The notes under the pieces: model-generated | Told to the model about the DNA's origin: nothing | What the model saw: the letters and a program-made list of their open reading frames with translations, nothing else | Database searches by the model: none | Shown here: positions 4,019 through 18,587 of the stretch, one piece after another | Numbering within the stretch: the first letter of the stretch is position 1 | Layout: each line of letters starts with the position of its first letter | From: an uncultured Candidatus Saccharibacteria bacterium | GTDB taxonomy: Bacteria > Patescibacteriota > Saccharimonadia > Saccharimonadales > Saccharimonadaceae | Direction: 5' to 3' | NCBI GenBank assembly: GCA_948477625.1 | Contig: CAOLNK010000001.1 | Location: 63,946 to 127,945, forward strand | DNA: 64,000 bases | Made by a program: the position numbers and the translations under genes

Positions 4019-4254
4019 GGAAGTATGTGTAGGTTAAATTTCGCACACCGGTATTGGATTTCAACAGTGGCCAATTTTGGCCTCGGTTTGCCATGCAATA
4101 CGGAATGTGCGGGAATTAGCCTAATTTAATCTCATAAATCGTTTATCTAGAAAAAGTCCCGGAAACCTCTTGGACGGGATTTCTCTAGCCGCAGATTCTA
4201 AAAGCGGCTAAGTATTAGTACATTAAAAATTTGTTCTCTCAAGGAGGAAAGTTT

Positions 4255-9082: not shown

Positions 9083-9158
9083 TGGTGCGGGCGGTTGGGT
9101 TCGAACCAACGACCAAGCGGTTATGAGCCGCCTGCTCTAACCCCTGAGCTACGCCCGC
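9083..9158 (-). tRNA. tRNA-Met (anticodon CAT; elongator-type or Ile2 not distinguishable)
   Basis: Cloverleaf: acceptor GCGGGCG/CGCCCGC, anticodon loop CTCATAA, CCA encoded. G1-C72 argues against an initiator. Confidence 0.85.
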
Positions 9159-9345
9159 GTCCGAGAGAAGAGTGATGCTTGCATCAGCTTTTCCGAGGGC
9201 GCGAAGTAGTGGAGCTAAGCTCCGCTACGCCCGCATATGAACTATATTATATCATAGGTCCCTATTGCATAAATACCTTTTTCGCAAGGTCTAAGACTCG
9301 GGCTAGCGCCCAGGAGCGGCCCCAAGGAAAAGTGTATTCATGCGA
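9159..9345. repeat. intergenic palindromic repeat modules (shared with typA and tatD internal segments)
   Basis: A hairpin module at 9161-9205 resembles 17851-17893. A 41-nt GC-rich core at 9286-9326 matches 15271-15311 at about 35/41 positions. An 11-nt copy of the tRNA-Met 5' end lies at 9224-9234. Confidence 0.5.
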
Positions 9346-9371
9346 CAAGATTACTATGTTATAATATAACC

Positions 9372-9812
9372 ATGAGTGGGATAAGAGCTCGCGCACGCAA
9401 AACGCAGTATTGGCTTAAGCACGACCTGCTGGTTTTTGATAACGTTGTTTTGATTATTGCTTTTATCTTTTGTCTGATTTGGACTTGGGGGTCAATCTCT
9501 TCCATGTCGCGCAACTGGAATTTGGCTCAGGAGCTCATGAACCGTCGCCGTGAAAAGGCTCTACTTGAACTGGAAGTAGAAACACTTGAGCTAGAAAATG
9601 AGTATTATCTGTCTGCAGAATATCAAGAACTGGCCGCGCGTAAGTACCAAGGCAAGATGCTCGCTGGCGAAACTATGGTCTATCTCCCAGCCAATTCTGA
9701 CCGCGCTAAGCACAAACATGATACTGATGCCACATCTACCACAGTCGTCAATACCGAAGAAATGAGTAATCTTGCTCAGTGGATGGCCTTCCTTTTTGGG
9801 ATTAAATTGTAA
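9372..9812 (+). CDS. septum formation initiator (FtsB/DivIC-like) protein
   Basis: It has a single TM, a coiled coil (LELEVETLELENEYY) and the family-typical motif EYQELAARKYQGKMLAGETMVYL. The promoter is leaderless (TATAAT). Confidence 0.6.
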   Translation: MSGIRARARKTQYWLKHDLLVFDNVVLIIAFIFCLIWTWGSISSMSRNWNLAQELMNRRREKALLELEVETLELENEYYLSAEYQELAARKYQGKMLAGETMVYLPANSDRAKHKHDTDATSTTVVNTEEMSNLAQWMAFLFGIKL

Positions 9813-14512: not shown

Positions 14513-16393
14513 ATGACTCAAAACATTCGCAACATCGCAATTATTGCTCACGTCGACCACGGCAAAACTACGCTTGTGGACGGCTTGCTCAAGCAGTCGC
14601 GCACTTTTCGTGACAATCAGGCCGAAATGTCGCAAACCTTGATTATGGACTCCATGGATCAGGAGCACGAGCGGGGAATCACCATTACTGCCAAGCAAAC
14701 CTCAGTTTATTATAACGATTACAAAATCAACATTATCGACACTCCAGGCCACGCCGACTTTTCCGGTGAGGTGGAGCGCACACTCAATATGGCGGACGGT
14801 GTTCTCTTAGTGGTGGATGCCCAGGAAGGCCCAATGCCACAGACTAAGTTTGTCCTGCAAAAGGCACTCAGTCTCAAGCTTAAGCCGGTGGTGATTATCA
14901 ACAAAATTGACAAACCTGCTGCTCGCATCGACGAAGTGGAAAGCGAAATCGCCGACCTCTTCCTCGAGCTCGCCAGCGACGAGAGCCAGCTGAACTATCC
15001 GATTTATTATGCGATTGCTCGCGATGGCAAGGCCGGCAAGACTACTGATCTCGATGATGATTTGCACGTAATTTTTGAGTCCATTATTAATGATATTCCA
15101 GCACCAAAGATTGATGAGGATGCCTCTAAGGGTGCTCAGCTCTTAGTGGCGGCGCTCGCGGCGGACAACTACCTCGGCAAATACGCTATTGGCAAGATCT
15201 TCCGTGGCAAGCTCAAGAAGGGCGAAACTGTATCGGTCATACATCAACTGACAACGAATGAGTCTTCTGAAGGGTCTGAGACTCGGGCAAGCGCCCCGGA
15301 GCGGCCCGAAGAAGACTCGATCGTTATCACTAAGGCAAAAATTGATAAGATTTTTGTCTACAAGGGCTTAGGTAAGGAAGAAGTGCCCGAAGCCACCGCT
15401 GGCGACATCGTGGCTGTGTCTGGTATTGCTCGGGCTAACATCGGCGACACGATTGCTACCGGTGAGACTCCCGAGGCTTTGCCCACGATTGAACTTGAGC
15501 CGCCCACACTGAGTATCTATATTGGGCCAAACACCTCTCCGCTCAAGGGGCAAGAGGGCGAGTTTACTACTTCGCGCCAGATTGCCGAGCGCCTCGAGCG
15601 CGAATTGGAAACCAACATCGCTCTCAAAATTGTGCTTGATGGTTTGGGCTACAAAGTTTCTGGCCGCGGTGAGTTACATCTTTCGGTTTTGATTGAGACG
15701 ATGCGTCGCGAGGGCTACGAGCTTGAAACCGGCCGTCCCGAGGTAGTCTATAAGGAGGTTGACGGCGTCAAACAAGAGCCGGTGGAAGAGCTGACAATCG
15801 AAGTCGAGCCGGAATTTGTCGGCGCGGTCAGCCAGGAACTCGGTATTCGCAAAGCGGAGCTCAAGAGCCAGGAGATGACCAGCACTGGCGCCACCCGCTT
15901 TGTTTATGAAATTACTACTGCCGCCTTGATTGGTTTGCGTAACAATTTGCTCACCGCCACCAAAGGTACGGCGATTATGTCCACTTTGCCGAACGGCTAT
16001 CGTCCAGTGGAAGGGAAGTATAAGCCCGAACGTAATGGCGCTTTGATCGCCTTCGAGCCGGGCACCAGCACGGCCTATGCGCTTGATGCTGCTCAGGCGC
16101 GTGGTATTCTCTTTATCCCGCCTGGTGTGCCGGTGTATCAAGGTATGATTGTTGGTCTCAGCAACAAGAAAGATGACCTCGATATCAATGTTTGTAAGGA
16201 AAAGCAGCTCACCAACATGCGCACTCATGCTAGCGACGGTGCCATTCAGTTGACGCCCTATACGCAGTATTCGCTGGAGCAGTGCATCGACTTCTTGCTG
16301 GACGATGAACTTCTCGAAGTCACGCCCAAATCTCTCCGTTTACGCAAGCGTCAGCTTGATCCGGTCAAGCGTAAGCGTGAAGCTAGAGCATAG
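14513..16393 (+). CDS. typA: translational GTPase TypA/BipA (with about 24-aa extra segment)
   Basis: G1 motif AHVDHGKTT plus DTPGHADF and NKID. It is colinear with BipA throughout, except for the extra segment [23 protein letters not shown]. Confidence 0.95.
15260..15318. repeat. GC-rich palindromic module inserted in frame in typA
   Basis: The outer stem is GAGTCTTC/GAAGACTC. The 41-nt core at 15271-15311 is near-identical to intergenic 9286-9326. Confidence 0.55.
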
Positions 16394-17639: not shown

Positions 17640-18587
17640 ATGCTAATCGATACACACTGTCATTTACACGACCCCGAATGGTTTACGCCCGAGCAATCGG
17701 AGTTGTTTTTGCAGGAAGCACGCGAAAACGGCGTGCAAAAGATTATCTGTATTGGCACCAATCCGCAGGATTCTTGGGATGCTCGCGACTACGCTAATGC
17801 GCATAATGACGTTTATTGGACTTACGGCATCCACCCCGAATTCTGTAGAAGCCCGAGAGAAGAAAATGTAGACATTTTCTTCCGAGGCGACGCCCAGAAT
17901 ATTGAGCAAAGCGAATTCGCCAGCCAGCCCGAAATGCTAGTGATGCCAGAATTATCGTCTTTTCGGGAATCTCCGGAGGTCAAGGTTACTGATGTTTGTC
18001 AAGAAAGATTAAAAGAGCGGTCAGCTGACCGCGAGGAACGAGAGCCCCGTAAAGACGGGCGCTCGAGTGGGTCTCTCAAGGCAAACGTTAGTAACCTTAA
18101 TAGCAGGTTGGTTGCCATCGGTGAAATCGGCCTCGACTACCATTACGACGGCTACGACCGCACCGCCCAAATTCGCCTTTTCGAGCAAATGCTTCAGCTT
18201 GCGCTCAACCTCAATCTTCCAGTTTCACTCCATATTCGTGAAGCCTTCAGTGACGCACTAGCCATTATCGATAATTTTCCGAAAACTCGTGGCGTGGTTC
18301 ACAGTTTCACTGGTTCTAAGCGCGACCTACGTCAAGCCTTAGAGCGTGGTTTTTACGTTGGTGTCAATGGTCTTTGTACCTACACCACTAACCCTTTACC
18401 CCCACTTGAAAAAATGGTCTTAGAAACCGATGCTCCCTTCTTGACTCCAATTCCGTTCCGTGGTACAATAAATAAACCAGGATATGTTAAAACTATTGCG
18501 ACATATCTCGCGGAAAAATTGGGTGTGGCAGAAGCAAACATAGTGGAGCAAACAACTCAAAATGCGAGAAACATTTTTCAAGTCTAA
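17640..18587 (+). CDS. tatD: TatD family metal-dependent hydrolase (with about 66-aa extra segment)
   Basis: N-terminal DTHCHL motif, plus GIHPE, AIGEIGLDY, HSF and ETDAP. A palindrome-rich extra segment is encoded at about 17850-18105. Confidence 0.85.
   Translation: MLIDTHCHLHDPEWFTPEQSELFLQEARENGVQKIICIGTNPQDSWDARDYANAHNDVYWTYGIHPEFCRSPREENVDIFFRGDAQNIEQSEFASQPEMLVMPELSSFRESPEVKVTDVCQERLKERSADREEREPRKDGRSSGSLKANVSNLNSRLVAIGEIGLDYHYDGYDRTAQIRLFEQMLQLALNLNLPVSLHIREAFSDALAIIDNFPKTRGVVHSFTGSKRDLRQALERGFYVGVNGLCTYTTNPLPPLEKMVLETDAPFLTPIPFRGTINKPGYVKTIATYLAEKLGVAEANIVEQTTQNARNIFQV

Follow-up and report, generated by a model that had tools for sequence, protein, structure and literature searches.

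How does a housekeeping gene in a bacterial genome come to carry, in frame, a DNA palindrome that also lies between genes? The question is raised by typA (bipA) in a stretch of 64,000 nucleotides from an uncultured Candidatus Saccharibacteria bacterium (GenBank assembly GCA_948477625.1, contig CAOLNK010000001.1, positions 63,946–127,945 of the forward strand; the whole of this stretch is referred to below as the window). The window has a GC content of about 46%, and its relatives place it among the Saccharibacteria (TM7) of the G3/Candidatus Nanosyncoccus group from animal guts. Repeated selfish DNA in essential genes is unexpected in such organisms, because the genomes of Patescibacteria are among the smallest and most streamlined. 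The analysis described here makes it probable that the segment within typA belongs to a family of small, non-autonomous palindromic repeat elements that exist at the DNA level and are translated where they sit in permissive loops.

The insert in typA and its intergenic counterpart

The typA gene (14513–16393, plus strand) encodes a protein of 626 residues that matches solved BipA structures with an E-value of 1e-167, and the orthologs of this protein contain the Pfam domains GTP_EFTU, GTP_EFTU_D2, EFG_C and BipA_C. It includes one complete copy of the element, a 72-nt insertion (15254–15325, plus strand; codons 248–271) that is in frame and free of stop codons, with boundaries uncertain by 1–3 nt. 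The initial annotation had counted about 24 additional residues in TypA, and the number is exactly 24: the protein has 626 residues in the window and in its nearest relatives, against 602 in orthologs that are 90–91% identical and have no insert, so that an alignment of TypA orthologs reveals a presence/absence polymorphism. Many of the best 120 TypA relatives, with 601–603 residues, are without the segment. The loop between GKLKKGE.V.V and KIDKIF has 37 residues in the window and 13 in empty orthologs. The junction reads GAT ACA/ATT ACC in an empty ortholog that is 91% identical (L129) and CTG ACA(72 nt)ATC ACT in the window, and no target-site duplication is seen at this filled/empty junction, the single site read at the nucleotide level. 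On alignment to BipA (8EWH, 5A9V), the insert falls between two conserved flanking segments, and window residues 245–273 stand in place of a six-residue stretch (242–247). In an AlphaFold model of TypA, used for secondary structure only (mean pLDDT 46), residues 246–269 form a coil between two strands. This position presumably belongs to domain II of BipA, to which it had been assigned at the outset, in agreement with our understanding of that protein.

The inserted DNA is predicted to fold back on itself. It had been described as a hairpin of 59 nt, with an outer stem GAGTCTTCT/AGAAGACTC and an inner GGGC-AAGC-GCCC. Both parts are present, but the hairpin is longer than was thought, its predicted stem spanning 15249–15329 (plus strand; TGA.AACGA.TGAGTCTTCT...AGAAGACTCG.TCGTT.TCA in the minimum-free-energy fold), and the whole hairpin, not the core alone, has been inserted. 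The fold has a free energy of −40.3 kcal/mol (z −4.76 vs shuffles), and a covariance model of the element matches 15252–15328 with 84.6 bits. At its centre lies a conserved asymmetric core (15276–15304, plus strand), CTGAGA-CTC-GGGC-AAGC-GCCC-CG-GAG-CGG, the columns of which are invariant or nearly so across copies; the apical stem-loop occupies 15282–15301 on the plus strand, with its loop at 15289–15292.

The 29 nt of this core recur at 9291–9319, in intergenic DNA. Between 15273–15307 and 9288–9322, 32 of 35 positions are identical, and 100 shuffles yielded no such match; for a 41-nt core aligned with 9286–9326, the initial annotation had given about 35 identities, and a recount finds 36. 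The intergenic copy as a whole extends over 9267–9343 (plus strand; 68.3 bits) and folds at −30 kcal/mol (z −2.5). Over the 64-kb window, the covariance model detects these two copies and no others, the next match being a generic hairpin with 15.6 bits.

Extent, anatomy and maintenance of the family

Copies occur far beyond the window. A strict scan for exact core patterns, with one genome per species, found the core in eight genomes, nearly all of them Saccharibacteria; relaxed core patterns added many more, and the last scan yielded at least 119 loci. The collection now comprises 159 distinct copies, 157 of them with paired arms (median of 27 paired positions, maximum of 63). The carriers include Saccharibacteria, Paceibacterota/Parcubacteria, Kaiserbacteria, Jorgensenbacteria, Peregrinibacteria, Peribacteria and Minisyncoccia, together with the cultured strains Bifidobacterium hapali DSM 100202, Bifidobacterium sp. 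ESL0763 and B. aerophilum TRE17. The Bifidobacterium copies (L142, 240–327; L147, 7597–7682; L241, 1–84) have the same core with arms of their own (GGGATAT...CGACCGT) and could reflect exchange between Patescibacteria and Actinomycetota. Armless pattern matches in GC-rich Actinomycetota, Planctomycetota and Streptomyces were discounted as coincidental. A single genome can hold several copies: there are three in a 6.4-kb contig, a pair in each of L002, L034 and L035, and no fewer than five in a chromosome of 805 kb. A mobile repeat would be harder to defend, as was recognized from the start, if only two copies existed genome-wide or if the segment were conserved as protein in all relatives; related genomes carry several copies each, and at this position close TypA orthologs differ, the loop being empty in some and occupied by the element or by another insert in others. 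In Rfam 15, searched with the window and L001–L008, only tRNAs and rRNA were found at the gathering score, and only generic miRNA-precursor hairpin models, all below the cut-offs, at an E-value threshold. Neither core variant matched phage or plasmid collections, and searches of the literature, by topic as well as by sequence string, turned up no description of the element.

The copies share a tip of 26–29 nt with a 7-bp stem, composed of (C/G)TAAGA, CTY-GGSC, an NAGC loop, GSCC, a CG bulge, GAG and CG. The arms are recognizably related within the subfamily of gut Saccharibacteria (..GGGTG-GCCGAAAYACCTYTTYC-GAA-GGGCC..tip..GGCCC-GA-GAARAGGTRTTCGG-ACAGGA-CCC..); those of other lineages show no such relationship, are often perfect and measure 35–55 bp, and the palindrome often continues past the homologous part into locus-specific sequence. 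The pairing of the arms is maintained. In two independent sets aligned to the covariance model, a procedure in which the fitting itself favours pairing, 95.5% of the cells are paired in set A3 (46 copies) and 95.8% in set A5 (88 copies), with 306 double-sided changes in A3 (90±10 in shuffles, at most 79 with slid partners) and 707 in A5 (209±13 and at most 183, respectively). Double-sided changes are therefore three to four times as numerous as in the controls, and an alignment-free pairing count agrees with the model-fitted sets. The apical stem also covaries, one of its pairs being C-G in 49 copies, G-C in 39 and unpaired in none (set A5); at another apical pair, 76 of 87 copies have T.G. 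Readings of the core as a K-turn, hammerhead, twister or bulge-helix-bulge were dropped on inspection by eye, the required conserved nucleotides being missing. In L083 (10071–10177), the 3' side of the core has about 30 extra bases with a second small GAGC-loop hairpin, which looks like a nested or duplicated tip.

The mismatches that remain within the arms are informative about the strand involved. On the plus strand of the element, G.T wobbles outnumber A.C mismatches by 83 to 38 (p 5e-5), and this excess, together with the apical T.G pair, indicates that one particular strand, the plus strand of the element, folds. With the local majority coding strand as a proxy, no replication-strand bias is present (26 to 27). 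Changes in the arms can also be followed between close relatives. Orthologous typA copies show compensatory arm changes, reading ACAACGAAT/GATCGTTAT in the window and ATGGATAAT/ATTATCCAT in L130. Between two strains that are 97.9% identical, 15 differences are concentrated in one arm and the core of a single copy, at about seven times the background rate, and one of the strains is left with a perfect palindrome. The core is flipped at the same site in typA (window vs L054) and in ileS (L005 vs L140), which is compatible either with the arms having mediated an inversion or with more than one insertion into a single permissive loop. Pairing of the arms may be preserved by selection for the hairpin, by intrastrand template switching or by recombination of one arm with the other; these processes would also extend the palindrome into its flanks and flip the core in place. 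No recurrent protein family was found beside the copies when open reading frames (ORFs) were clustered near 46 copies and then at 134 loci, the families that do recur being those of housekeeping and syntenic genes only; the element is therefore considered to be non-autonomous.

Copies within genes and competing explanations

About a quarter of the copies (40 of 157) are intragenic, in the sense that a long reading frame continues for at least 40 codons on either side of the copy. Host genes confirmed by Pfam or plain reading are typA, gyrA, murB, ileS, cysS, ychF and mnmA, and reading without Pfam adds tsaD, prmC and possibly the N-terminus of tatD. These copies occur in both orientations and use five of the six frames of the core, the commonest reading being KTRASAPE or KTWPSGPE, and every one of them has a length that is a multiple of three and is stop-free in the frame of its host, including the freely varying arms. 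As intragenic copies were found by requiring an open frame, 107 other copies were checked for split genes, and none of these non-spanning copies splits a gene by being out of frame or by bearing a stop; candidate split genes beside copies proved to be genes in tandem, the first of which ends ahead of the hairpin or within its outer arm, while the second begins beyond it. An Obg-like GTPase gene in L196 owes its final residues and its TAG stop codon to the copy there (4021–4122; ...TAPGRLPKS, then the stop), and gatB begins shortly downstream. That all intragenic copies are in frame and that no gene is split is what purifying selection on translated inserts predicts, and argues against removal at the RNA level.

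The loop of TypA appears to be a hot spot. Among relatives, its length at this position ranges from 12 to 62 residues, and it contains diverged 72-nt copies (L048) or other hairpin-forming sequences (L059, L088). In a rough neighbour-joining tree of TypA, element-bearing proteins fall into three clades interleaved with empty ones, a pattern that may be due either to an old insert that has repeatedly been lost and decayed or to a loop that has been hit several times. A second palindromic family in the TypA loop, found in L040 (10715–10816), L046 (10715–10900) and L056 (2589–2753), encodes GGSAE.ERRDP.T.GV.DA. Elsewhere in the window, the TatD DNase gene (17640–18584) encodes 315 residues, against 257 in the L129 ortholog, and the roughly 60 extra residues (insert at about 17838–18120) are encoded by DNA rich in inverted repeats, with a perfect 11-bp pair (17859–17882), two interleaved pairs (17956–18098) and a perfect 16-nt palindrome (18016–18031). 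They look like additional palindromic inserts in frame, from another family.

Three explanations would do away with a repeat element tolerated in the protein. RNA ligases of the RtcB type occur in bacteria, and could lend some plausibility to an intron-like or hairpin-triggered excision of the insert from the typA mRNA, by which the 24 residues would be absent from the protein. The paired arms moreover resemble the trigger of inverted-repeat-dependent 'SOS splicing' in animals (PMC12779559). Such excision would, however, make the constraints on frame and stop codons described above needless, for the intragenic copies as for the 107 others, and the copy that provides a gene with its C-terminal tail and stop codon is hard to reconcile with it; it is thus very improbable. 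No more credible is the idea that selection at the protein level has given TypA of this lineage a functional extension of 24 residues, the likeness to 9291–9319 being incidental. The insert is kept at exactly 72 nt in several related species, as this would lead one to expect, but the flanking residues encoded by the arms vary among these orthologs with the complementarity of the arms preserved, the same nucleotide sequence is found in noncoding DNA and, read in different frames and in the opposite orientation, in unrelated proteins, and the 90–91% identical orthologs do without the insert. Chance similarity or an assembly artefact, to which the shortness of the shared core might lend some colour, has a negligible probability: the shuffles gave no match, gene calls on 26 contigs give an identical TypA protein, substitutions distinguish the orthologous copies of other species, and the 159 copies come from independent assemblies, cultured isolates included.

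A fourth explanation, that the element is a structural signal of use to the host (a terminator, a hairpin at the mRNA end or for mRNA processing, or a site for factor binding or priming), with the copies in genes as by-products, overlaps with the preferred one, of a DNA-level repeat element translated in permissive loops, rather than excluding it, and it draws on several of the observations that weigh against selfish mobile DNA. The tip is nearly invariant from 37% to 64% GC and across classes, and the core is near-identical in very distant lineages, which is unusual for a purely selfish repeat and suggests a conserved function or partner. Many intergenic copies begin 8–17 nt past a stop codon, a place taken in relatives by an ordinary terminator hairpin (in L035, a copy takes the place of the ordinary terminator-like hairpin that follows typA in the window; regions downstream of typA are otherwise too diverged to align), and the orientation of copies relative to the gene immediately upstream is biased (29 to 12, p 0.01), being more often antisense; a purely neutral mobile element predicts neither. 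The position of one copy immediately upstream of a tRNA in L008, and of another immediately upstream of the 5' end of 16S rRNA in L002, favours a host signal too, as does the covariation in the apical stem. A further point against the preferred explanation is the low copy density, with two copies in the 64-kb window and about one per 100–150 kb in the 1.3 Mb surrounding typA in relatives. Finally, the permissive loop is presumed to lie at the protein surface on the basis of the sequence alignment to BipA, the AlphaFold model being poor; in that alignment, the stretch that corresponds to the insert can be located in BipA, as had been proposed. Against a host signal stand the presence/absence polymorphism among close relatives, the intragenic location, in either orientation, of a quarter of the copies, the excess of wobbles on a strand that is mostly not sense to the upstream gene, the hairpins with no T-run following them and the lack of a match to any Rfam family. 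The folded strand is unrelated to the local coding strand and often antisense to the upstream gene, which is easier to reconcile with a form of single-stranded DNA than with a sense RNA. A host signal is thus rather unlikely as the explanation, whereas a repeat element at the DNA level remains the probable one.

The repeat element would, in typA, be translated as 24 extra hydrophilic residues that are tolerated in a permissive loop, and copies that break a frame would be removed by selection. The element would exist at the DNA level, with its plus strand folding, and is presumably mobile, new copies being made by a trans-acting enzyme that recognizes the tip, probably on single-stranded DNA, and that leaves no target-site duplication. 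It may be, although the balance tilts somewhat the other way, that the invariant 26-nt tip is the recognition module of a conserved enzyme acting on folded single strands, making the family either a new hairpin-based mobile system or a domesticated signal. The mobile system would then be common to the whole of the Patescibacteria and exchanged with Actinomycetota such as Bifidobacterium, and the domesticated structural signal would be one that also colonizes essential genes; arm homogenization, palindrome growth that copies promoters and flip-flop of the core would actively shape minimal genomes and core proteins. The element accounts for a class of odd insertions in core proteins of Patescibacteria (TypA, GyrA, IleRS, CysRS, MurB, YchF and MnmA), which complicate annotation, alignment and structure prediction, and it provides a ready marker for strain-level presence/absence typing. 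The near-identical tip across the superphylum suggests an undiscovered protein partner or mechanism, and since cultured Bifidobacterium strains are among the carriers, most of which cannot be grown, the search for this partner is open to experiment.

The surroundings of the intergenic copy have features of their own. The copy sits between a tRNA-Met(CAT) gene (9083–9158, minus strand; ARAGORN and Rfam) and an ORF (9372–9812). We take this tRNA to be the initiator, judging by its 5' end CGCGGGCG. Sequence reading and folding reveal a larger imperfect palindrome centred on the copy (9243–9368), each outer arm of which has an outward-facing TGnTATAAT box (TGATATAAT, TGTTATAAT), one at 9246–9254 (reverse complement, facing the tRNA) and the other at 9357–9365 (facing ORF 9372). 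The boxes correspond to an extended −10 motif, from which the promoter reading is drawn, and this reading is tentative because a two-hexamer promoter scan around the intergenic copy found nothing. It looks as if the larger palindrome may have grown outward, duplicating a promoter. If the outward box acts as a promoter, ORF 9372 would be nearly leaderless; on the other side, the putative leader between promoter and tRNA-Met (9159–9240, minus strand) contains a partial repeat of the 5' end of the tRNA (GCGGGCGTAGC), followed by a small GGAGC-TTA-GCTCC hairpin. The layout of a copy flanked by outward-facing boxes recurs in L008 (about 640–830), upstream of a tRNA. The copy in L002 (638–715) lies about 20–30 nt from the mature 16S rRNA 5' end, within the rRNA leader and in the same orientation. 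No comparable empty site orthologous to the intergenic copy was found, synteny not being conserved in the loci examined.

Comparison with known systems

Several known kinds of element share part of this behaviour. Single-strand origins of the ssoA type, from rolling-circle plasmids, have an RSB and the CS-6 motif TAGCGT in a loop (PMC4598088). The family described here resembles them in having a long strand-specific hairpin, putatively of single-stranded DNA, with a short conserved loop motif (TAGCG in about half of the copies), and one arm of the Saccharibacteria subfamily (CCGAGAAAA) resembles the RSB (GCCGAGAAAA). The likeness is weak: the first base of the loop (NAGC-G) varies between A, G, T and C, the RSB-like string lies on the opposite (3') arm and in one subfamily only, and the copies are chromosomal, multi-copy and partly intragenic, with no counterpart in the plasmid or phage collections. 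[quoted passage not shown] What defines a MITE is the conservation of its terminal inverted repeats, the duplication of its target site and the existence of a parent insertion sequence, whereas here the termini are variable, the central core alone is conserved, no parent insertion sequence was found, no transposase-like family recurs nearby and the one filled/empty junction, in typA, has no target-site duplication. Nor does the family behave like an intron or an intervening sequence at the RNA level, the intragenic copies being in frame and stop-free and no gene being split.

The REP, BIME and REPIN sequences, which are mobilized by RAYT (Y1/HUH) transposases and include the GTAG- and CGTC-tagged REP superfamilies (PMC3733652, PMC3337134), resemble the family in the structure of its tip. 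They too have a conserved tetranucleotide beside a GC-rich, imperfect, bulged hairpin, and further similarities are the absence of a visible target duplication, an implied strand-specific folding and the many copies just downstream of genes. The tetranucleotide is here TAAG, 5' of the bulged 7-bp hairpin, a tag unlike GTAG and CGTC, and it is contained within a longer hairpin. REPs are extragenic, species-specific in sequence and usually present at high copy number, whereas 40 of the 157 copies considered here lie in long ORFs; no neighbouring gene recurs, although no search was aimed at RAYT itself. The family is thus not assigned to the REP/REPIN-RAYT system.

Closest in behaviour appear to be the Rickettsia palindromic elements (RPEs), selfish repeats that lie in frame within protein-coding genes and were reportedly described by Ogata et al. 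in 2000. Work on RPEs is cited in PMC1779305 and PMC10969869. It was to these elements that the initial annotation had likened the typA insert, and that interpretation is supported, in that the palindromic element lies both in noncoding DNA and in frame in housekeeping genes at many loci. The resemblance suggested is one of behaviour only. Both are short palindromic repeats found between genes and in frame in housekeeping genes of host-dependent bacteria with reduced genomes, in both the hairpin is kept by compensatory changes and no transposase is known, and both are inserted in loops that differ between orthologs. Rickettsia belongs to an unrelated phylum, however, and in the family described here an asymmetric tip is conserved, rather than the whole element or its ends, the core spans a superphylum and Bifidobacterium, the arms extend in a locus-specific manner and the core can be flipped at the same site. 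What this family adds to the picture is thus its breadth, its invariant tip with freely co-varying arms, the essential nature of the genes that host it and the evidence that arms are converted and cores inverted.

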